A DNA stretch of 64,000 nt from a virus. Positions 12,729 to 28,096 of this stretch are shown one piece after another (within the stretch, counting starts at the first letter, position 1; every line of letters begins with the position of its first letter). The stretch is from positions 1 to 64,000 of IMG/VR virus record IMGVR_UViG_3300036795_000211, one strand, 5' to 3'. The notes beneath the pieces are model-generated. The model worked only from the letters and a program-made list of their open reading frames with translations, ran no database searches and was not told where the DNA came from. The position numbers were made by a program, and so were the translations under genes.

Positions 12729-13328
12729 TTACAGCGCGGTCGAGATGATGTCGATGACCTGGCAGTTAGACAGGTCGGTCAACGAGTTCAGCGTGATCGG
12801 GTACATCCGCTTGTCCGCCGCACGGCGGAAGTTCGTCTGCACCTGTCCCGCCGAGTTGATCTTCGGGATGTAGAAGACGCGGGGGAACCCGAGGTCGTTC
12901 TTCGCCAGGATCGCACAGGCGAGCGAAGCGAAGTTCGAACTCAAGGTAAGCGTCTTCTTACCGGGAACGCCGGTACCCTGCGATTGCGTGGCGATCGATC
13001 CACCGCCGCCGTACGCGAGGTTGATGTTGTTCAGCGTCTCTTCGGCCATCGAGGTCGAGATCTGGAAGGTCGCCGTTTGCACCAGCGAGGCCACCGGGAT
13101 CGGCGTCTCCTCGATCTGGATGTCGTTCATGTTCGGCGAGAACTGGACCTGGACGCCCTGATCGGTACCGCCGGTATACGTCCAGCCAGTCCACTTGGAG
13201 AAGTCACCGAGATCGACGTCCGCCGGGAGCGCCGTACCGAACGGTGACGTCCACAGGTAACCGTTACCGAATAGCACCTCCTGCGTGTTGTACGCGGGAG
13301 GCAGGAACTCAGTACCCAAGTTCGGCAT
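12729..13328 (-). CDS. major tail tube protein
   Basis: WTYTGGTDQGV...SMAEETL motifs; high GC3; position. Confidence 0.85.
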   Translation of the reverse strand: MPNLGTEFLPPAYNTQEVLFGNGYLWTSPFGTALPADVDLGDFSKWTGWTYTGGTDQGVQVQFSPNMNDIQIEETPIPVASLVQTATFQISTSMAEETLNNINLAYGGGGSIATQSQGTGVPGKKTLTLSSNFASLACAILAKNDLGFPRVFYIPKINSAGQVQTNFRRAADKRMYPITLNSLTDLSNCQVIDIISTAL

Positions 13329-17463: not shown

Positions 17464-18711
17464 TTACAGGGCGAACGCCGACCGCGCCGCCTTCACGAAG
17501 TCGCGCGTTTCCTGGACTTCCTGCTCGCGCTCCTCCCGCTCTTCGTCCGGCTCGAGGCCGTTCCCGATGACGCCGCTCAGGTCGAGCAGCTTGATCTGCT
17601 TGCCGATCTCGGTCAGCACGGTTCGCATGACCTGGCCGGCATCGATCTCGTCCCCGCCGGACAGTTCGACCACGTGGCCGGACCCTTCCAGCAGTGGCCG
17701 CGCCAGGTCCACGATCGCCGGGGGGATGCCCAGCGCGTTGGCGAACTGCGTCCGTTCGTTCTGGAACGCCTGCTCGTCGAGACCGGCCTGTACCGCGTCG
17801 AGGTGCTCACCCTGCTGCACGATCAGCGCGTTCGCGTTGGCCAGTTCCAGTGCCTGCCGACGTTGCGAAGCCGAAACGGTCGCAGGAACCCGATCGGTCG
17901 GGGCCACTTCGTCCTCCTCCTCTTCGTCCTCATCGTCGTCGGTGTCCTCGTCCTCGACCATGTCGGCTTCGGCCTGCGCGATCAGCGCGTCGAGGTCCTC
18001 GTCGCTCAGCTCCGATTCGTCGTCGCTCTCACCGTCATCGTCGTCCTCGGTGAGTTCGTCGACAAGGCCTTCCAGGTCGTCATCCGACGCGTTGCGGGCC
18101 TTCTTCAGCAGCTCGAGGAGCTGACCCTTGTCTTCCAGCGTGAACGCCACCTTGTCTCCTCCTTCCCTTTCTCCGAACGTTGCATCGGAGAGGTCGAGAA
18201 CTTCGACCGTTCCGAGCTCGTTGCTCAGCGCGACGGGCACTTCGACTTCCTGCCACGTTCGCATTCCCGCGATGTGCGGGTCGAGCGTTCCCAGCACGTG
18301 CTGTAGTGCGGCCTTCCAGTGCTTTCCATCGGAACGCTCGTAGTCCTCATAGATCCTTGCGGAGACCCCGAGTTCGGGGTTGTCTCGCAGGAGTTCATCT
18401 CCCTTCCTCGTGGCCTCCAAGATCAGATCGAGACCGTCATTCGTCATCTCGACGCCGACGATCTTTCCCCGGGTCCGTTCCGGGTCGTTGTTGTGCTTGT
18501 TGTTCCCGTCGGCCAGCTGGAACGGTACCTGACCGAACGCCTTGTCCTTGAACGAACGGACGAGGTTCTGAAGGTAGTCCTTGTCGAACTTGAGCTGCTG
18601 CCCCTTGTAGGTGATCTCGCCGAGCGGCAGCAGCTGCGTACGCCACATCCGGCGACCAAGCGATACGGTACGCCGTTTGGAGCGCGGGGTGAGGAGTCCG
18701 TTTACCGTCAT
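17464..18711 (-). CDS. Mu I-like prohead protease-scaffold
   Basis: QLLPLG...H..D...GVSA...LQHVLGTLDPHIAGM protease half followed by an acidic coiled scaffold half. Confidence 0.8.
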   Translation of the reverse strand: MTVNGLLTPRSKRRTVSLGRRMWRTQLLPLGEITYKGQQLKFDKDYLQNLVRSFKDKAFGQVPFQLADGNNKHNNDPERTRGKIVGVEMTNDGLDLILEATRKGDELLRDNPELGVSARIYEDYERSDGKHWKAALQHVLGTLDPHIAGMRTWQEVEVPVALSNELGTVEVLDLSDATFGEREGGDKVAFTLEDKGQLLELLKKARNASDDDLEGLVDELTEDDDDGESDDESELSDEDLDALIAQAEADMVEDEDTDDDEDEEEEDEVAPTDRVPATVSASQRRQALELANANALIVQQGEHLDAVQAGLDEQAFQNERTQFANALGIPPAIVDLARPLLEGSGHVVELSGGDEIDAGQVMRTVLTEIGKQIKLLDLSGVIGNGLEPDEEREEREQEVQETRDFVKAARSAFAL

Positions 18712-20774
18712 GTCGCCTTCCTCGTGATCTTCTTCCCGGGTGCGAACTGTGGAATGGCGGTCCCGTGAAGGAGCCGGGCCAGTGCGATCTTGCGGGCCTC
18801 ACCCTGCGACCATCCACGAGCTTCGAGAGCGGCGGCCAACGTCCGGAGCTGCCCGACCTTCGACACGGTGATACCGAGTCGTTCGGCGAGTGCGGCGTCC
18901 TTGGCTTGCTGCTTCTCGGAGGCGATAGCGTTTGCGCCACGGTTCTTGAACAGCGTCTGCTGCAGCGTCGGATGCTTCGAGGTCGCACCGGACGCCTTGG
19001 CCGCCTTGTTCTCCGCCTTACGTACCGTGCGTCCTGCGGTGCCCTTCGGAGGAACGGCTGCGCCTCGGGCCACGGACATCGACCGCTCATGCCCGATACC
19101 TTGCAGCTTCGCCTTGTCGTAGGCCCGCTTCTGGTGCGGCTTGAGCGCTGCGTACTCGGCCTGGTGATCGGAAATCGATTTGCCGGTTGACGGTGCGGAG
19201 GTCTTACCTTCGGGGGTAGCCGTCCTACTGGTGCGGCGGCGTGACGTCCCGGGTGCCGCTCCCGTTCGTGTCACGCCGCCACTACCGCCCTCGCCCGCCC
19301 GGCGAGTCTTTCGGGATTGTCGTACTGCGCGCTCCGCCTTCAAGCGCTCCGGATGCCCCTGCGGATACTGCGCTCGAGCTGCCGTTCGGGCCTTCAGCAA
19401 GGTTGCGTGCTCCGGAGTCCCAACCGGAGTTGGGGTCGTTGCACCCGGGGTCTTAACGGTTGCCGTGTTTCCACCCGGGGTCTTTGTCGTAGCCGCCGGC
19501 TGCTTCGGCGCATTGACCACTGGCTTCTGCGTGGTCTGCTTCGTTGCGGCCATTCGATCAAGTGCGCCGCCGTGTGACATACCGCTCGCACGCAAGGCCT
19601 TGTACTGGGGGTTACCCTGCAGCTGCGTGAGCGTCATTCCGCCGACTCCGACCGGCTCGGAGGTATCCTCACCCCGCGCTTTCCGATCCAGTAGATCGTT
19701 CGTCTGCAACGTGCTGAGGGTCGACGCACGGTGCTTTCGACTCTCGATACCGTGATTCGACAGCCCACGGCGTTGCGAGATAACGGACTCGTGATCGGCG
19801 GCGTGGTCCTCGATGAGGAGCTGATGCGAACGTCCTTCGTGTCCGTGGGTAATCCCGTGCACGTCCGACAGATGCGCTATCAGCTTGAGTCGATCCTCGT
19901 TTGAACGGGAATGCGCCGGCGTGACCTTCTGACCGGACGGTGCGTACTTTGCGGCGGCTGCTGCCGTGTCCGTGGCGGAGTGCTCAGCGCCGGTCTTCGA
20001 CGGGGTCTTCGTTCCGCCGCCCTTGGTCCCGTGCTGGTAATGCGAGACCATTCCGGCGTGAATCCGAATCGTTTGACCGGACTTCGCACCCTTCGTAACT
20101 GCGACGTTGAGGTGCTCGCCGTCCTTCGAAAGGACCGTACCTTCGTGAACACCCGAGGACTGCGGGAACCGAACCTTGGAGCCGGCAGCGATCTTCGGAA
20201 GGCCGGGACCGCCGTGGTAAATCCAGCCGTGCGAATACCCCTTCGGACCGGTGAACTCGATGGCCTCTCGGCCTCCCGCGTACTCGGCGGGTGCCTTCAC
20301 CGCGCTGGGCGGGTAGCCCTTGTTCGCCGCATAGCGCTTGCACGCGGACATTGCGAACTTCGTGACAGCGTCGCCGGTCTTGCCCTGGTTCTTCGCCATT
20401 GACACGGCACGCTTGTAGACCCGGTCCATCTCACCGGCGACCGGCTGGTCCGACAACTCCCAGACGAATTCGCCTTGGGCTGCGGCGAGCTCCAGCGTTG
20501 CCCGCAAGGCCGACGACATCGCCTTTGCGGTCTGCGTGTTATCCGCCCACGAGCCCTTGACGGTTGACCACGCTCCGAGCTCACGGGCGCGCTTCCGGAT
20601 CAGCCGGCCCAGTGCGGGTCGCTTACCGGGTGCCGCCCTACCGACCGCCTGAATGGCCTTCTTCAGGTACGACCGATTCGGAATCGGATACGAGTCGTCC
20701 GGGAGTGCCTTGCCGGCCTTGGCCAGCTTTCGGCGCCCTGCCGCACGCTCCGGTGCGGGGGTCTTAACGGTCAC
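18708..20774 (-). CDS. mosaic basic head-associated protein (DUF6582-like N-terminus, Tudor/SH3-like segment, repeated helical motifs)
   Basis: ALPDDSYPI...LKKAIQAVGRA...IRKRARELG; ATGA-coupled to the protease gene. Confidence 0.75.
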   Translation of the reverse strand: MTVKTPAPERAAGRRKLAKAGKALPDDSYPIPNRSYLKKAIQAVGRAAPGKRPALGRLIRKRARELGAWSTVKGSWADNTQTAKAMSSALRATLELAAAQGEFVWELSDQPVAGEMDRVYKRAVSMAKNQGKTGDAVTKFAMSACKRYAANKGYPPSAVKAPAEYAGGREAIEFTGPKGYSHGWIYHGGPGLPKIAAGSKVRFPQSSGVHEGTVLSKDGEHLNVAVTKGAKSGQTIRIHAGMVSHYQHGTKGGGTKTPSKTGAEHSATDTAAAAAKYAPSGQKVTPAHSRSNEDRLKLIAHLSDVHGITHGHEGRSHQLLIEDHAADHESVISQRRGLSNHGIESRKHRASTLSTLQTNDLLDRKARGEDTSEPVGVGGMTLTQLQGNPQYKALRASGMSHGGALDRMAATKQTTQKPVVNAPKQPAATTKTPGGNTATVKTPGATTPTPVGTPEHATLLKARTAARAQYPQGHPERLKAERAVRQSRKTRRAGEGGSGGVTRTGAAPGTSRRRTSRTATPEGKTSAPSTGKSISDHQAEYAALKPHQKRAYDKAKLQGIGHERSMSVARGAAVPPKGTAGRTVRKAENKAAKASGATSKHPTLQQTLFKNRGANAIASEKQQAKDAALAERLGITVSKVGQLRTLAAALEARGWSQGEARKIALARLLHGTAIPQFAPGKKITRKAT

Positions 20775-20947: not shown

Positions 20948-21307
20948 TTACGTGGGGTCAACGACAAACGGTCCGAATTGCGCCGTTACCGTCTTCCCGG
21001 CTGACGTTACGTCAATGCGCCACCAGGTCGACGCTGCAGTAGTCAGATCCGCATGCGGAATGCTAAACAGCGTGATTCCGTTCGCTAGCGGTGCCTGATT
21101 AGCACCGGCGTACGACTTGAACGACGTGTCCGAGTCCAGAACATCTCGTGAAGCCTTACGAATGAACGTACAAGTCTTCCCGGTGAGGTCCAGTGGCTGC
21201 TGCTTTCCGCCGACCAACGGAAGACTCGGATCCGTCAGTGCCGCTTGAATCGTTACGTCGTTGTTCTGACGTACCGAGATCGAGACCGGATCCATTTCGC
21301 CGGACAT
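20948..21307 (-). CDS. BppU N-terminal-like Ig domain protein
   Basis: PLDLTG.T..F...NGITLFSI..ADL...WWRIDV...T..FG.F.V pattern. Confidence 0.65.
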   Translation of the reverse strand: MSGEMDPVSISVRQNNDVTIQAALTDPSLPLVGGKQQPLDLTGKTCTFIRKASRDVLDSDTSFKSYAGANQAPLANGITLFSIPHADLTTAASTWWRIDVTSAGKTVTAQFGPFVVDPT

Positions 21308-23448
21308 TAGTCCTCCACTACTATCGTTACGTCGAACCCTAGCGGCTCGACGGTTCCCCCGTAGGTAACTACGGTAATCGTGACCCCGTAAACTATTGGC
21401 ATTGCCGATCCTTCCACCGTGTCCGGTTGGAGAACTATCGCATACCCGAGAACCACTATACTGGCTGCCAGGGCGTTTGTCGAAATCGTACAGCCAATAT
21501 CCTCCGGCGGGGGAGGTATAATGGGCGCAATTGTCGGACCGGGAAGTTCAGTGGCACGCCGTTTACGCTGGAGCGACCGCCAGAAGCGCTGGGCCAGTCG
21601 CTTGACCACTGCAACCGGAAGGGGCGGCGGCTTCGGAGGTGGCGACGGCACCCACGGAATCGTGATTCGCCTCTTAGGTAGTGACCGCCTCGACGCTCTC
21701 GGCTGTACTACCGGCTCCGGTGCGAACGGGACTAGCTTACTGCTTCGGGCTCTTCGGGTTCGTCCGGCCTGACCCTTCCGGGTAGTCTGCGGGGCGTACG
21801 GCACAACGGTGGCCCGTGGTTGTCCGGGAAGCTGCGGAGGTCGTATACGTCGAAGTAGTACAATCCGCCGCATTCGGTGCGTATCCGGAACGGTCGGGGC
21901 CACCGGTACCGTGACGGGTGGAACCGGGGTCGTAGTTGCATTCGACTTCCTTCGATACCAGCGAGTTCGGATTCGAGTCGGTGCATACGGAGCAAACGCC
22001 GCAACCGAAGGGGTAGTTGTCGGGCCCGGAAGCTGATGAATGTTCGAGCGGCGAATCCGAATTCGCCAAGTACGGTTTCGCGGCTCGTACGGAGCCGGTT
22101 GCGCCGGGGTGACCACTTGCGGAGCCGGAGGTGCCACTACGCTCTGACTTGGCTTGCGATAACGCGTTGTCCGTCTGTTCGGCTGTATCGGAATAGTCGG
22201 CTCCGGACCGAATTGAGCTGGTGCAGCATACCGTGAACGTCGGAACCGGAATACTCGACGATACAACGACAAAGCCGGAAGTGGCTGGAATACGGCTCCG
22301 ATTCCACCGGGTATCTGCTGCACTGCCCCGCGCTGTCGCCTATACCGGGTACGCCGTACGCTAGGGGTCGCGGGAGGCGGAGCCGCACTAGTAGGCAACG
22401 GTGTCGCGTGCAGGATTCGTCGACCGCGAAGGGCCCAGCGTCGCGGTATCGGAACCGGCGGAATCGGCGGTAGGGGAACTATCACCGTCGGAACCAGCGT
22501 ACCGCTCCCGTGCGAGCGCCGATAGCGGAGCTTCGAACGACTCGGCTGCGCAACCGTCTCGATTGCAGCCGGGACCTGTGTCGCACTACCCTTTCGTAGC
22601 CTACGCATAGCTGGCCGGGTAGTTCGACCCAGCTGCGGAGGCGGAAATACGACGACCGGAGGTATCACCGCTGGAACGAACGCAGTAGCGCGTCGAACAG
22701 TTCTTGGTCGGTACGGACGCGATCTTGGCGCGACGGGTACGATACCGGCGGTGACCGCGATCACCTTGGACGGGACCGGAACCGCCCTGCGATAACCTCG
22801 TACCGATCTCCGATTAAGCCGAGGCTGTCCCGGCGGGAGACCAAACGGAACGCGGGCAATGTAAACGCCCGCAAAGCCGTCGGTAAACGTCCCGGTATTC
22901 TTCAACGTCCAGACCAGTCCGAGACCTGATGTGTCCGTTATCGTTGCCGCACTGCTTGCGGCAACTACCAGAGCGACGAGTAGGCTACCCGGCGGCGGCG
23001 TGAACGCTGCTGTCGTAGCCGAGTTCGCATTGGCAGTGGCGAGCGCCGGCGTAGAGCCGTCCAGCGTAATCGTGCCATTCGGCAAGACCTCGAACAGACC
23101 TACGCCGACGTTAAGAAAGGTGTTCGATGCTCCGATCGTTACCGATCCCGGCGTTCCAGTAGCCGAAGTCGCCTTTACAGCGCCGAGCTGGAAGCTGTTC
23201 TGTGCGGCCTGCGCGATAATCGTACTACTTGCCGTAGCAAGCAGCGTGGACGCTGACCCGCCTACGGCACCGTAGACCACCGAGCCGGTTACCGTAGTAG
23301 TGATTGCTTTCGAGTAGGCCGAGCTCGACTGGTTAGTGGTACTCGCTGCCGGCTGCGCCAGGGCCGTATTTCTGAGAACCTCGACCAGGATACTCGTGCC
23401 AGTCGTAATAACCGTGCCGGCTTGCGTGGCTTTAACCGTAAACGCCAC
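21307..23448 (-). CDS. 713-aa protein: beta-rich N-domain plus periodic Arg/Pro repeats
   Basis: Single long ORF, TAATG coupling to the downstream gene, no competing long ORF. Confidence 0.75.
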   Translation of the reverse strand: MAFTVKATQAGTVITTGTSILVEVLRNTALAQPAASTTNQSSSAYSKAITTTVTGSVVYGAVGGSASTLLATASSTIIAQAAQNSFQLGAVKATSATGTPGSVTIGASNTFLNVGVGLFEVLPNGTITLDGSTPALATANANSATTAAFTPPPGSLLVALVVAASSAATITDTSGLGLVWTLKNTGTFTDGFAGVYIARVPFGLPPGQPRLNRRSVRGYRRAVPVPSKVIAVTAGIVPVAPRSRPYRPRTVRRATAFVPAVIPPVVVFPPPQLGRTTRPAMRRLRKGSATQVPAAIETVAQPSRSKLRYRRSHGSGTLVPTVIVPLPPIPPVPIPRRWALRGRRILHATPLPTSAAPPPATPSVRRTRYRRQRGAVQQIPGGIGAVFQPLPALSLYRRVFRFRRSRYAAPAQFGPEPTIPIQPNRRTTRYRKPSQSVVAPPAPQVVTPAQPAPYEPRNRTWRIRIRRSNIHQLPGPTTTPSVAAFAPYAPTRIRTRWYRRKSNATTTPVPPVTVPVAPTVPDTHRMRRIVLLRRIRPPQLPGQPRATVVPYAPQTTRKGQAGRTRRARSSKLVPFAPEPVVQPRASRRSLPKRRITIPWVPSPPPKPPPLPVAVVKRLAQRFWRSLQRKRRATELPGPTIAPIIPPPPEDIGCTISTNALAASIVVLGYAIVLQPDTVEGSAMPIVYGVTITVVTYGGTVEPLGFDVTIVVED

Positions 23449-23472
23449 TGCGCACCCAGCTCTCTCCGAATG

Positions 23473-23505
23473 GGCCGGCGGGTCCGCATACTACCCGCCG
23501 GCCCC
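23473..23505 (-). terminator. GC-rich hairpin (attenuator or terminator)
   Basis: About 12-bp stem gggccggcgggt / acccgccggccc. Confidence 0.55.
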
Positions 23506-23518
23506 GCTCCCGTTCGAC

Positions 23519-24034
23519 CTACTCGTCGGTCTCCACCGTGACCACGAACAGATGCGAGGCCGGGAGTGCGTTACCGATGTTGACCAGGGCCAGTCCGTTC
23601 GCCGTTCCCTGGTCCACGATGAACATGTCGTCCGGGAATTCGAACGGCACGTCCCAGCCGACCTGCGTGTTGAACGTCAGCTTGTGCAGTGCGGTTGCGC
23701 CGATCGTCGGACCGGTCGTACCTGCGGTCGTTGCCGTGGTTACGTCCAGCCCGGTGATCACCGAAGCCGGTCCGCGCTGATCCGTGTTCTGGAACGTGGT
23801 CGTACCGAATCCGGTACCGACCACTCGAACCGTCTGACGGTACAGCGCGATCGTGTGCTGGTCCGAGGTGACGGAACCCGCCGGTCCCCGAACGCCGAGG
23901 ATCAGCCGGCGCAGCTTGACGTTCGATGATGCCCCCGCGACAATCGCCGCGAAGTACCCGTTGAACGTGGTCGTTGCCGGCGTCCCAGCGAGCTGTGCGG
24001 ACTGCGATTCGAGCGACGCTACGAAGCGACCCAT
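23519..24034 (-). CDS. Thr/Ala-rich beta-sandwich structural protein
   Basis: High GC3 as in abundant virion proteins; followed by a hairpin. Confidence 0.75.
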   Translation of the reverse strand: MGRFVASLESQSAQLAGTPATTTFNGYFAAIVAGASSNVKLRRLILGVRGPAGSVTSDQHTIALYRQTVRVVGTGFGTTTFQNTDQRGPASVITGLDVTTATTAGTTGPTIGATALHKLTFNTQVGWDVPFEFPDDMFIVDQGTANGLALVNIGNALPASHLFVVTVETDE

Positions 24035-24315
24035 TACTCGCTACCTCCCTTCCGGATCGCGAGAGCGGCCTGGAGCCGTTCCCGATTATCGCTGCCCACG
24101 ACCTGCTCGCCGGAGTCGTGGAGCTCGAGGAGTCGGGCGGCGTGGTCGGCCTCCCGCATCTCCTCATCGGAGAGCTGGTCGATAAGGCTCTCGAGCGTCT
24201 TCACGTGCGACTCAATCTGCTCGAGTCGCGTTCGCAAGGCCGGTCGCGTGTACTTCGCACGCAGAGTCTCAACGAGTCCGTCGAGTACGCTGCGGTCCGA
24301 CGTTTCGTCCGCCAC
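24034..24315 (-). CDS. small helical hypothetical protein
   Basis: GTG start after purine-rich SD; TAATG coupling. Confidence 0.65.
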   Translation of the reverse strand: MADETSDRSVLDGLVETLRAKYTRPALRTRLEQIESHVKTLESLIDQLSDEEMREADHAARLLELHDSGEQVVGSDNRERLQAALAIRKGGSE

Positions 24316-24435
24316 TTCCCTTTCCCTTCTTCGGTTCGGGTTCGGTGTAGATAATCGGAACACCGTCAGCGTTCAACGTGATAACGGTATCCCCCGGCTC
24401 GGGTACTTCATCTTCCGGAGGCGGATCCTGCTTGG

Positions 24436-25059: not shown

Positions 25060-25997
25060 AACGCACGCGCCCGAAGAACCAAAGCGGATGCCCTGCCCCT
25101 GAGTTGCCGAACCTGCACTTGTAGCTGCCCGATCTGGTTCCTCAAGCTATTCGCCTTAGTTGTTGCGGCACTTGACGCTGTTGAGGTGGCCTTTTTTGCC
25201 GTTGTCTTTCCGGCCTTCTTGGCCACAGTGGTGGCTGAGGCCTTAGCCTTCGTAGCAGTCTTTCCCTTGGTCGTCGTCCCGGTTGCTTTCGACCCGCCGG
25301 TCTTGGTCGACTTTCCGGAGTTCGTAACCCCCTTGAGCTCCTTCTGCAAGCCGCCGATCTTTACCTCGAGTGCGTTAGCCTGCTGCCGAAAGCCTTTCGC
25401 CCTCGTTAGCAACTGCGCCTTCTTGGCGCCCTTCGGACCGCGGGAGACCGGAGCCGTCTTTTGCCCCGGAGCCTTTTTCGCAGCAGGTGCCTTTGCCGCT
25501 GACGCACCGCCGCTGCTTCCGGACTTTGGTGCGAACTGCCCGCCGGTAGCGCTACCGGCTCCGACGTGCATCGTGTTGAACAGCTCGATCGGTTGCGCCA
25601 AAACGTCGTCTCGTGACATAGCCTTCGCTCTCGCCGCGGTTGCCTTGAGTTCGGCGATAGCCGCTGCAGCCGCCGCCTTTACTTCGGGATGCTTGCTCGT
25701 TGCCGCAAGTCGCTTGCACGCGTTGATCGCGGTGGCCGTTGCTCGACCCTCCGCCATACCGCCACGCATCAACGCGTTACGCATGTTCTCGATGTAGTTA
25801 GGTAGCTTCGCACCCTTCATGTGGTACAAGCCGGGTCCGCCGGGCTTGCCGCGTGGCGCGGGGGTAGCCACGAGTCGAGGCGTTTCCGCCGACAACGAGA
25901 TACCCTTGTGCTTCCGAATAAGCCGCATTAGCAGCTGCGTATGGGCATCCGGCTTCGGATCATGCGCATACGAGGAGTCACTGAGTTGCGTTGTCAC
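25056..25997 (-). CDS. Lys/Ala-rich head-associated protein
   Basis: PAP.GKPGGPGLYH..LP.YIE..R.AL.R domain; internal FNTMH..GGQF; H1-like tail. Confidence 0.7.
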   Translation of the reverse strand: MTTQLSDSSYAHDPKPDAHTQLLMRLIRKHKGISLSAETPRLVATPAPRGKPGGPGLYHMKGAKLPNYIENMRNALMRGGMAEGRATATAINACKRLAATSKHPEVKAAAAAAIAELKATAARAKAMSRDDVLAQPIELFNTMHVGAGSATGGQFAPKSGSSGGASAAKAPAAKKAPGQKTAPVSRGPKGAKKAQLLTRAKGFRQQANALEVKIGGLQKELKGVTNSGKSTKTGGSKATGTTTKGKTATKAKASATTVAKKAGKTTAKKATSTASSAATTKANSLRNQIGQLQVQVRQLRGRASALVLRARAL

Positions 25998-28096
25998 GAC
26001 TTCTTGATACCTCCAAGATCGTACTCCTGCGGCATCATCTTCAGCTTTGCGTACTCCGCGTACGCTCTAGCCGCTGCCCGCGGATTCGAATTCGCCGTTG
26101 CCTCGGTCCACAGCTCGGCCATTAGCTCGCTCGGCGATTGAGATGCGTATTCCGAGATGTTCGCCTTAATCGCCGGCGCATTCGCCTCGACCCACTTCTG
26201 CAGCGTCCCCCGGTTTATCAGTGCGTCCGCGCGATCGACACTGTCCTGCGTCATTCCGGCGAACACTTTGTCGATCTCCGCCGTCATCTGCGGACGATTG
26301 GCCTTTAGCGCCTCGTACGGCGCACGCATTTCGGCCACCGTGGTATGCGACAACTCCGGTCGGGTTGCGCCGATCGAATCAGCTATCGTATTCCACAGTT
26401 CCTGCGTAAAGCCGCCTTGCGGAAGGTGACGATGTACGCCGTGTCCGATCTCGTGGGTGAAGTTCGACTGAAAGCGGCCGACCTTTTCGTTGGTCGGTAC
26501 GTGAAATCCGGAGGACTCCTCGTCGCCCTTCCCCCGAAGGGTGTGCAGCTTCGGATGCAGCGTTATCTCGCCGCCGGGTCCGTGCGTCCCCGCCGTATAT
26601 GCGCCGGGGCGACTCTTCGCAGTTTCCGGATCAACGGTGCTCTGCGGCTTTTCAACGGTGACGTGCGTGGCGGAAACAACATGCGGAGCGTGCTTCGACT
26701 GAATTTCGAGAACCTTCTCGATCTTCTGCTTGAAGCGTACCTTCTCGCCGGGTGAGTATAGGAACGTACTCACCGTAGGATCGGACTCGTTTATCGTTAC
26801 ACCGCGACTCTTTACCGGTTCCGGTGCAGGCGGAAGTCCGGCCCGCTGTAGGTCCGCGTTGTACCGTGCTCGCTCCTCCGGATTTAGCCGGGACGCCACC
26901 TTTTCCGTTAGCTTTTCGTTCGCCGCTCGGGCACGAGTGTTGTAATCCGCTATTGCTCCCGCGCTACCCTGCTTGTCGTTCGGTAGGGTTAGCGATACCA
27001 GCTTACCGTTCTCCTGCTGACGCTCTACTACGAAGCCATTTTCCTCGAGCTTCGCCGCGTACGCCGTTAGATTGTTGTGTACCCGATCCGCGGTAGACGA
27101 ATTGCGGCTGCCCAACGAGCTACCGGTGTAGTGCTCAATTCGCACCCCGTTGTCACCGGCGGATACTTCGTGTCCCGGATCGTAATTGCGCCAGCCCTTG
27201 ACGGACGTCGAATGGCTCTTCACGGCCGCGAATCCGGACGAGCTTAGCGCAGAACGCGCTCGTCGCGCATTGACTTCGGCTGCTACGCGACCCTTTCCCT
27301 TCTCCACGGCTTGCACGTGCGCCGTCAAGGCAGTGTACTGCGAATCACCGCCGCCGAGGTAGATCTCCTTGCTGTTCCCGCTAGTGAGGAACGAGCCACC
27401 GGAGGACTTGTTCGTGGTAACGGCACCGATGTGCTTGTCGTCATGCCGAAAAGTGGTGACCCAGTCCTTGTGCTGCGTCGGAACGACACCACGACGCTGC
27501 TCCCGTAGATTCGGATACGAGTGTCCGGTACGCTCAATCGGTTCGGAGGTCGTTACCTCGGAAGGGTGTATTCCGCCCTTGCGGCGGCGTGAGCTCCTCG
27601 GTACCCGCGGGGCCTTGACCGCGGGAGGCGAAGCCACCTGGAGGTCCTCGCGATTGGCTACCTCGGCGTGGACTTCCTTCCAGAATTCCGTCCGATGCGC
27701 TGACCCCGGGTGATCCTCGCTGAGTCCGCGATCATTCGCGTTCTGCATCGCACTAGCCACGGCGTCATCGTATGCCGCGGTTTTCGGGAACGCCGATACC
27801 TTTCGACGCCACTCCGATTCCGTACCACCGAGACCGACCGGGGATTCACCGGGTGTCGTTTCCATCTTCGGAGCGGCTTCTTGACCCGGCTCGACCGACT
27901 TCGTGTGCATTCCGAGCTTGCGCGACTTGCGTACTGCGTTCTCGGCCTTTAGCCGTTCAGGGTGACCCGCGGGATGCGCCGCTCGAGCCTCAGTCCGAGC
28001 CGTTAGCAGCTCGGAGTGTGGCGTAACGCCGGGTATTCCGTGGAATACCCAGCCGTGGGAGTACCCTTTCGGTCCCACAAGGTCGAGCGTGCGCAT
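25994..28096 (-). CDS. 700-aa protein with C-terminal zincin-like metallopeptidase
   Basis: THEIGHG plus ISEYA...ELMAELW. Confidence 0.7.
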   Translation of the reverse strand: MRTLDLVGPKGYSHGWVFHGIPGVTPHSELLTARTEARAAHPAGHPERLKAENAVRKSRKLGMHTKSVEPGQEAAPKMETTPGESPVGLGGTESEWRRKVSAFPKTAAYDDAVASAMQNANDRGLSEDHPGSAHRTEFWKEVHAEVANREDLQVASPPAVKAPRVPRSSRRRKGGIHPSEVTTSEPIERTGHSYPNLREQRRGVVPTQHKDWVTTFRHDDKHIGAVTTNKSSGGSFLTSGNSKEIYLGGGDSQYTALTAHVQAVEKGKGRVAAEVNARRARSALSSSGFAAVKSHSTSVKGWRNYDPGHEVSAGDNGVRIEHYTGSSLGSRNSSTADRVHNNLTAYAAKLEENGFVVERQQENGKLVSLTLPNDKQGSAGAIADYNTRARAANEKLTEKVASRLNPEERARYNADLQRAGLPPAPEPVKSRGVTINESDPTVSTFLYSPGEKVRFKQKIEKVLEIQSKHAPHVVSATHVTVEKPQSTVDPETAKSRPGAYTAGTHGPGGEITLHPKLHTLRGKGDEESSGFHVPTNEKVGRFQSNFTHEIGHGVHRHLPQGGFTQELWNTIADSIGATRPELSHTTVAEMRAPYEALKANRPQMTAEIDKVFAGMTQDSVDRADALINRGTLQKWVEANAPAIKANISEYASQSPSELMAELWTEATANSNPRAAARAYAEYAKLKMMPQEYDLGGIKKS

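Follow-up and report, generated by a model that had tools for sequence, protein, structure and literature searches.

The gene examined here lies in the late region of a virus genome, at positions 21307-23448 on the minus strand of a 64,000-nucleotide (nt) stretch of IMG/VR virus record IMGVR_UViG_3300036795_000211; this whole stretch is referred to as the window. It encodes a 713-amino-acid (aa) protein in which a long arginine- and proline-rich (Arg/Pro) region is built of periodic units, and directly upstream of it lies the gene for a 171-aa protein, here called A. The window belongs to a complete 73.7-kb virus record with direct terminal repeats, and its late genes are on the minus strand. 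They begin with the large terminase, portal, a 222-aa protein, a peptidase, 700-, 313-, 207- and 109-aa proteins, A, the 713-aa protein and a 119-aa protein; after a gap they continue with 688-aa, 415-aa and 140-aa scaffold-like proteins, the major capsid protein, a head-tail adaptor, the tape-measure protein and tail proteins. The major capsid protein belongs to family phrog_1650 and is ~37-39% identical to capsid proteins of Gordonia, Mycobacterium and Rhodococcus phages. From this likeness and the set of late genes, therefore, the phage is a siphovirus and its host is very probably actinobacterial. The sequencing runs that carry the record comprise a single soil metagenome, probably its source, with no RNA run listed. 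The features on which the analysis centres are as follows.

21307-23448, minus strand: open reading frame (ORF) of the 713-aa protein, open for 713 codons from a GTG start; homologues begin at the same place
22834..23448, minus strand: N-terminal all-beta domain, aa 1-205; AlphaFold2 (AF2) model with predicted local distance difference test score (pLDDT) 91 and predicted template modelling (TM) score 0.90
21499..22833, minus strand: Arg/Pro repeat region, aa 206-650; 14 units of ~32 aa, net charge +79, isoelectric point (pI) 12
21310..21498, minus strand: C-terminal domain, aa 651-713 (63 aa); small, acidic (charge -6) and beta-rich
23472..23504, minus strand: 12-bp GC-rich hairpin, within the 70 nt that separate gene A from the 713-aa gene
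23519..24034, minus strand: gene A, 171 aa, predicted jelly roll, directly upstream of the 713-aa gene

A periodic Arg/Pro protein

The preliminary description of this locus had reported 14 periodic Arg blocks, and this was confirmed. A density scan of the 713-aa protein finds exactly 14 clusters of R and K, with centres from aa 215 to aa 627; examples are RLNRRSVRGYRR, RRTRYRRQR, RRVFRFRRSR, RNRTWRIRIRR and RIRTRWYRRK. The clusters are spaced 23.5-37 aa apart (mean 31.7), the Fourier spectrum peaks at 32.1 aa, and their autocorrelation was reached by none of 2000 shuffles. Between aa 201 and 650 the composition is 19% Pro and 17% Arg, and there are 8 acidic residues rather than the 6 counted earlier. 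The units follow a loose grammar, an Arg block in which R often alternates with hydrophobic residues being followed by a linker of Pro and aliphatic residues; in half of the units the block is succeeded, 3-6 residues on, by Q and then by a hydrophobic residue and P. At the DNA level no tandem repeat lies behind these units, Tandem Repeats Finder returning one 21-nt array only and direct repeats being no longer than 24 nt, which upholds the earlier statement. Searches of the 713-aa protein against Pfam and PHROGs gave nothing useful, there was no match among PDB sequences at E <= 1, and tblastn of GenBank phages found none either.

The GC content at third codon positions (GC3) of the 713-aa gene is 0.59, against 0.63-0.86 in the other late genes, and its repeats are richer in rare Arg codons (CGA 32% and AGR 16%, compared to 17% and 7% in other late genes); these features made it necessary to rule out a wrong reading frame. 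Across all frames of this stretch no second long ORF is present. Two metagenomic homologues, P0002 and P0004, are collinear with the 713-aa protein through the repeats, with a mean column identity of 49% in the three-sequence alignment; little or no variation is seen in residues of the Arg blocks or in stretches such as HQLPGPTTTP, PTR.R.RWYRRK and RRLAQRFWR. The start of the C-terminal domain (PPPE-IGCTI...GY) is also conserved in both. The equivalent repeat genes of GC-rich relatives have a GC3 of 0.82-0.92. Because the protein is conserved in this frame and its homologues have so high a GC3, the frame of 21307-23448 is judged to be coding, and the low GC3 of the window gene more probably reflects low expression. 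An artefact of wrong frame or frameshift is ruled out by homologues that keep both the frame and the Arg blocks, and by the lack of an alternative long ORF.

The period is kept far more widely than the sequence. The 34 unique repeat segments that were collected fall into 20 groups, which cannot be linked to each other by BLASTP with composition correction at E < 1e-5, and yet the periods across these groups are 30.3-35.3 aa, mostly 31.5-33.6 aa. The estimated number of repeats in relatives is ~7-29, compared to 14 in the window protein. The consensus unit of the largest group reads RLRGLRLRRGRaatPVPpQVapPaP, with three fixed positions that are 94% R, 95% Q and 100% P. A hidden Markov model (HMM) built from regular repeat proteins does not score the more degenerate units of the window protein, and ten other repeat proteins gave nothing useful against Pfam and PHROGs. 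With the period and the non-charged positions held so tightly in the absence of sequence conservation, the units look like a binding register, each apparently contacting a partner of constant size, and not like a spacer or a simple polycation. The preliminary description had named a wrong frame, or a periodicity that is not conserved, as what would speak against it; the frame is kept, and so is the period of ~32 aa in all 20 groups.

Protein A and its coupling to the repeats

At the 90% clustering level the homologues of A number at least 500; they are 64-89% identical and of a constant length of ~170 aa, and a profile detects ~100 clusters at 50% identity. The family is viral according to the ESM Atlas, and A is far more conserved (64-75% identity) than the neighbouring genes. 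Neither A in Pfam or PHROGs, nor its distant relatives in PHROGs, found a match, and tblastn found A in none of 50,697 GenBank phage records; among 185,579 species genomes it occurs on two short contigs of metagenome-assembled genomes only (Streptosporangiaceae and Sporichthyaceae).

The association of A with the repeats was measured from both sides. One set of loci was fetched via the N-terminal domain of the 713-aa protein, and so is unbiased for A; it consisted of unique proteins with at least 2.5 kb upstream. A lies within 3 kb upstream of 7 of the 9 N-domain proteins with Arg/Pro tails and of none of the 34 without (Fisher p = 1.1e-6). Five records that lack A were searched, and no A was found in them, these records being incomplete. 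The other set consisted of 58 loci fetched via A with at least 2.5 kb downstream, and here a strong period of 28-37 aa was required of each ORF, as a filter against wrong frames, which in GC-rich DNA are rich in Arg and Pro too. A strongly periodic Arg/Pro ORF starts within 2 kb downstream of A at 38 of the 58 loci; the same filter passed one ORF upstream and four on the opposite strand. Some of the repeat proteins downstream of A have a different N-terminal beta domain and some have none, those of L069, L081 and L090 beginning straight with repeats. It is clear from the two sets (7/9 against 0/34, and 38/58 downstream) that A is genetically coupled to the Arg/Pro repeats and not to the N-terminal domain.

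The similarity of A does not follow the family of the capsid protein. In L069 and L081, whose capsid families differ (that of L069 is of the phrog_2263 type), A is in each case 66% identical to its counterpart in the window, while the A proteins of L038 and L120 are 42-45% identical to it although their capsid proteins belong to phrog_1650, as in the window. For this reason the main constraint on A seems to lie inside the module.

The AF2 model of A (pLDDT 76) is all-beta, with a predicted jelly-roll fold. Its best fold matches with VIA-align are the turret of Haloferax tailed virus 1 (HFTV1; Z 7.6), nucleoplasmin cores (7.1-7.2), the Bacillus Ena pilus subunit (7.0) and KHP40 cement protein (6.9), followed by coat proteins of satellite tobacco necrosis virus (STNV) and a nanovirus (6.3-6.6) and by Pam1 and GP4 (5.6-5.7); a Z below 8 is in the range that the tool calls common. 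Foldseek gave jelly-roll coat proteins at E values of 2.8e-3 or higher. The matches point to the fold class of A and not to its family. The protein has a charge of -3 and a pI of 5.5, with no Arg-rich arm and no long acidic tracts.

A high-GC3 beta protein followed by a hairpin had been described upstream of the 713-aa gene, and this is what is found: the GC3 of gene A is 0.80, and the 73-nt stretch with the 12-bp hairpin folds at -35.1 kcal/mol (z = -2.1). The hairpin has no U-tract and is not called by a simple terminator scan; it may be an attenuator or an RNA stabiliser. Since A has the higher GC3, the repeats are richer in rare Arg codons and the hairpin stands between the two genes, A is probably made in excess of the repeat thread.

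Neighbouring genes and exchangeable parts

Two further genes flank the pair in the window.

20948..21307, minus strand: 119-aa protein, a predicted beta-sandwich, its start overlapping the 713-aa gene stop by one base
24034..24363, minus strand: 109-aa acidic helical protein, directly upstream of A

At 21307 one base belongs both to the stop codon of the 713-aa frame and to the ATG from which the 119-aa protein starts, an arrangement that suggests translational coupling of the two genes. The 119-aa protein matches phrog_1084, whose function is unassigned (E = 0.0018), and zero Pfam families at E <= 1. It had been called BppU-like, a label that has look-alikes in the ESM Atlas behind it and not the Pfam HMMs, PF10651 (BppU_N) and PF23926 (LtfC-like) both being unmatched. 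In the Atlas it has a feature score of 0.95 to clusters in which 22-24% of members carry BppU_N or LtfC, and it aligns with a TM score of 0.75-0.80 to LtfC-like models, a comparison of predicted with predicted structures; 74% of one structure-matched cluster carry LtfC. On these models the 119-aa protein looks like the BppU_N/LtfC fibre-adaptor domains. Its homologue lies directly after, or is fused into, N-domain or repeat proteins at 7 loci. In one of these fusions (L006:10001-13183) tblastn places the 119-aa-like region near the C-terminus of an N-domain protein (nt 12881-13144), and the first jackhmmer domain is listed at residues 471-496. The fusion is a Rosetta-stone hint that the 119-aa and N-domain proteins may work together.

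The N-terminal domain itself behaves as a shuffled part. While a scan of viral contigs with the single sequence found no relatives, an alignment-based scan found the domain in 55 viral loci, joined to many different C-terminal parts. Some of its relatives in the protein database carry glycosidase-type Pfam domains (PF13204 and PF12904), and LamG-like, that is lectin-like, domains are inserted within the repeats of homologues. The fold search with this domain found no clear solved relative, the best matches being trimeric receptor-binding-protein heads and tumour necrosis factor-like jelly rolls at Z 4.0-4.7. A sister phage (L025, L026), whose terminase and portal are 75% and 72% identical to those of the window, has at the equivalent position a 1042-aa N-domain protein without Arg repeats; next to it downstream comes a relative of the 119-aa gene, and no homologue of the 171-aa gene is present. 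The two loci (L025:8693-13476 and window 20948-24363) differ by a cassette swap: in L025 a 224-aa protein, a 195-aa protein of family B (see below) and the repeat-free 1042-aa protein replace the 109-aa protein, A and the N-domain repeat protein of the window, the 119-aa gene downstream being kept in both.

A three-gene module had been proposed, and it stands in part: A goes with the repeats, whereas the 119-aa protein goes instead with the N-domain proteins. Homologues of the 109-aa protein are found just upstream of A at 7 loci (34-49% identity), and its Pfam search gave weak noise of the coiled-coil type only; whether it belongs to the module is uncertain. Two families without a name, B (~180 aa) and C (~100 aa), often lie between A and the large gene (for example at L038:8284-9173, L005:7109-7965 and L021:9666-9971). 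Both also accompany N-domain proteins without repeats, and the window has neither. Searches of B and C against Pfam and PHROGs gave nothing useful, and hhalign of A with B gave a probability of 0.4%, so that paralogy of the two is not supported.

In L038, L120, L081, L069 and L005 the module follows the capsid gene at a distance of 1-3 genes and precedes the neck, tail-terminator and major-tail genes; in the window its place is between portal and capsid. Judged by these differing positions, the module is a mobile cassette in late structural operons.

Further observations concern the repeat proteins and their surroundings. Repeat proteins that follow A end in short Gly/Ser/Thr-rich tandem repeats or in small domains. 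Among repeat proteins such as those at L098:1404-3149, L103:8388-9875, L104:8778-10436 and L092:10226-12091, many have at the C-terminus a Cys-framed run of short tandem units of the 'GTT.RP' type (CDC...SCGND), and others have GGGTGLVETV or SGDRSSTSA repeats there; such C-terminal tandem repeats may be trimerisation or tip elements. Basic repeats of another type are found in two Arg-rich N-domain proteins, RR.AARAVW.GT..RT.NAA at L002:10001-12040 and SRAR.GPGGR.GAG, with a period of ~36.6 aa, at L009:9995-12670, and their sequences suggest that there are further types of thread. At L005:4402-6551 the A/B/C/repeat module is immediately preceded by a glycosyltransferase-like and a methyltransferase-like gene, in the interval from the capsid gene to the tail genes. 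Elsewhere in the head operon of the window, the 688-aa (18708-20774, minus strand) and 700-aa (25994-28096, minus strand) proteins, neither of which has a Pfam or PHROG match, share short near-identical stretches (GPKGYSHGW..HG.PG and ...HPERLKAE.AVR.SRK) that are also kept in L025; the 700-aa protein has an HExxH motif at its end.

Interpretation and comparison with known systems

The reading that we favour, with a probability of roughly 0.4, is that the 713-aa protein and A form a two-part accessory structure on the exterior of the virion, in which each repeat docks A. The Arg/Pro region would be a multivalent thread, each unit of ~32 aa docking one A subunit or a small A oligomer; the docking unit would consist of the Arg block, the Q-hydrophobic-P motif that follows it and then the Pro-rich linker. 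How long the resulting fibre is, whether bead-on-string or sheathed, would depend on the number of repeats (14 here, ~7-29 in relatives). The role of facing glycans or the host would fall to the N-terminal beta domain, and likewise to the lectin-like and glycosidase modules of relatives; the fibre would be anchored on the particle either by the 119-aa BppU_N/LtfC-like protein or by the C-terminal domain. The binding of A to the repeats, the stoichiometry, the external location and the site of attachment are all inferred. The preliminary description had offered, among other roles, a ruler or scaffold on which the 171-aa protein polymerises, and this gains indirect support because A is coupled to the repeats specifically and not to the N-domain. 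Furthermore, the module looks structural and external in its context, given its position on the neck and tail side, the LamG-like inserts, the glycosidase domains and a 119-aa partner that resembles a fibre adaptor. The top fold matches of A include subunits of appendages or decorations, namely the HFTV1 turret, the Ena pilus subunit and KHP40 cement.

Several observations weigh against such a structure. With a charge of -3, A cannot neutralise the ~+5.6 of each repeat, and the fibre would stay strongly cationic. The fold matches of A are all within the Z range called common, and 20 of the 58 assessable A loci are below the strict periodicity threshold. The Arg-rich N-domain proteins of L002 and L009, with their repeats of another type, have no A in their records, which are incomplete. 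Lastly, tblastn of the 713-aa protein and of A found no cultured phage with the module among GenBank phages. A fuller version of the proposal is a viral protein ruler in which each repeat of 32-33 residues captures one copy of A, the number of repeats (7-29) sets the length of the fibre and the lectin or glycosidase heads are exchangeable, the whole being common among soil actinophages that have not been cultured and lacking in all cultured phages. In this complete form it is doubtful.

The most serious rival is that the protein is a polycationic adhesin, with an extended Arg/Pro tether by which virions adhere reversibly to anionic polymers in the envelope of Actinomycetota (teichoic or teichuronic acids, lipoglycans) or to surfaces in the soil, and with A as a co-inherited decoration or turret base. 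It would account for a net charge of +79 with almost no acidic residues, which A could not neutralise, and for the lectin-like and glycosidase modules on the same scaffold in relatives; HFTV1, where a base protein stands beside a glycan-binding, hydrolytic head and whose turret A matches at Z 7.6, provides a precedent. Generic charge binding, however, would leave two things unexplained: the period of 32-33 aa in 20 groups together with the invariant Q and P, and the fact that A tracks the repeats and not the lectin-like N-terminal domain. Moreover, the similarity of A is independent of the capsid family, as would be strange for a capsid-docking protein; we therefore consider an adhesin unlikely. 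A location inside the head is more unlikely still. The Arg blocks would then bind packaged DNA, or be ejected with it, in the manner of a protamine-like core protein, with A as a nucleoplasmin-like chaperone, and the pI of 12, the periodic Arg clusters, the nucleoplasmin cores among the best fold matches of A (Z 7.1-7.2) and the position of the window gene between portal and scaffold/protease, among large unexplained head-operon proteins, could all be read in this way. But in five other phages the module follows the capsid gene by the neck and tail genes, lectin-like inserts and glycosidase domains make little sense in a DNA-filled head, the 119-aa partner resembles a fibre adaptor and A lacks the long acidic tracts of nucleoplasmins. 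In addition, one chain of +79 is negligible against ~147,000 phosphates unless there are many copies, and codon use suggests low expression.

It is also improbable, to a degree beyond the internal protein, that the region is a flexible disordered spacer without a specific partner, its periodicity being the relic of an ancient duplication of units. Disorder is what a high content of Pro and Arg predicts, no repeat is left at the DNA level, and the units of the 713-aa protein range in length from 23 to 37 aa; however, unconstrained insertions and deletions would erase a common period, and yet 20 unlinked groups keep one of 30-35 aa, together with near-invariant positions that are specific and non-charged and a tight linkage to A. 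Hardly credible at all is a polyprotein cleaved into cationic Pro/Arg peptides, or else an artefact of wrong frame or frameshift. The likeness to Pro/Arg-rich antimicrobial peptides is superficial: instead of short released peptides there is one protein of 713 aa, whose repeats are flanked in frame by a folded domain at either end, and inspection of the homologue alignments found no recurring cleavage motif, signal peptide or export gene. That GC-rich wrong frames are often rich in Arg and Pro, and that a GC3 of 0.59 is low for this phage, is countered by the lack of another long ORF, by conservation in this frame and by the high GC3 of homologues. Nothing that was found supports either the DNA-condensing protein or the Pro/Arg-peptide polyprotein that the preliminary description had listed, and the lectin-like inserts and the fibre-adaptor-like partner argue against both.

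If the favoured two-part structure is correct, it would be a new way to build a phage appendage, a thread being passed through or coated by a jelly-roll subunit and fitted with exchangeable heads that are turned to the host. The A family (at least 500 members at 90% clustering) would thereby gain a function, as would the mutually unlinkable repeat proteins, all of these being now 'hypothetical', and the structure would supply a simple, testable rule of ~32-33 residues per subunit and possibly a modular scaffold for the display of binding domains. Even if the fibre model is wrong, a strictly kept period in highly diverged polycationic proteins tied to one conserved partner needs explaining.

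The closest comparison by fold is the capsid turret of HFTV1, whose base protein gp30 and turret head protein gp31 are encoded side by side, a glycan-binding, hydrolytic head being proposed for the first, reversible step of adsorption (bioRxiv 10.1101/2024.12.09.627619). The turret chain of PDB 8qpg is the best fold match of A (Z 7.6, root-mean-square deviation 3.4 over 101 residues), and in both cases the gene for a small beta protein lies directly upstream of that for a large protein with carbohydrate-binding or hydrolase modules, in the head gene cluster. HFTV1, however, has no Arg/Pro repeats, and here A co-varies with the repeats rather than with the lectin-like domain or the capsid family. 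Cement and decoration proteins (KHP40, 7dou; Pam1, 7eel_H; GP4, 8h89_J) resemble A in their size, in its predicted single jelly roll and in a gene that is near the capsid gene in most loci, but they match it only at Z 5.6-6.9 and without sequence similarity. To our knowledge, none of the described cement proteins has a repeat thread as its partner.

Jelly rolls and Arg-rich segments are also combined in the small capsid proteins of STNV, nanoviruses and circoviruses, which bear Arg-rich arms that bind nucleic acid (PMC7096446), and A has fold matches of Z 6.3-6.6 to the STNV and nanovirus coats. In contrast to such arms, the Arg segments here form a separate region of 445 aa, with 14 periodic units and folded flanks, in a tailed double-stranded DNA phage; A has no terminal arm, the Arg blocks being in a separate gene product. 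With BppU_N (PF10651) and LtfC-like (PF23926) domains, the 119-aa protein shares a small predicted beta-sandwich and a gene that is next to, or fused with, that of a large appendage protein.

As regards mechanism, the nearest parallels are the nebulin-type rulers and the tape-measure proteins of phages. Nebulin is built of simple repeats of 35 residues, each of which binds one actin subunit. The likeness is in the many short repeats of near-constant length (~32-33 aa here), in their variable number and in a conserved globular partner that is probably in excess. Unlike those rulers, the present repeats are rich in Pro and Arg and not helical, and the partner is a jelly roll rather than actin or a tail tube; the analogy is one of mechanism only, with no kinship in sequence or fold, and binding and length control are here a proposal. 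Literature searches for virion proteins with Arg/Pro repeats returned no description of such a module. The general kind of structure, an accessory fibre or decoration of a phage, is known; its principle of construction would be new.

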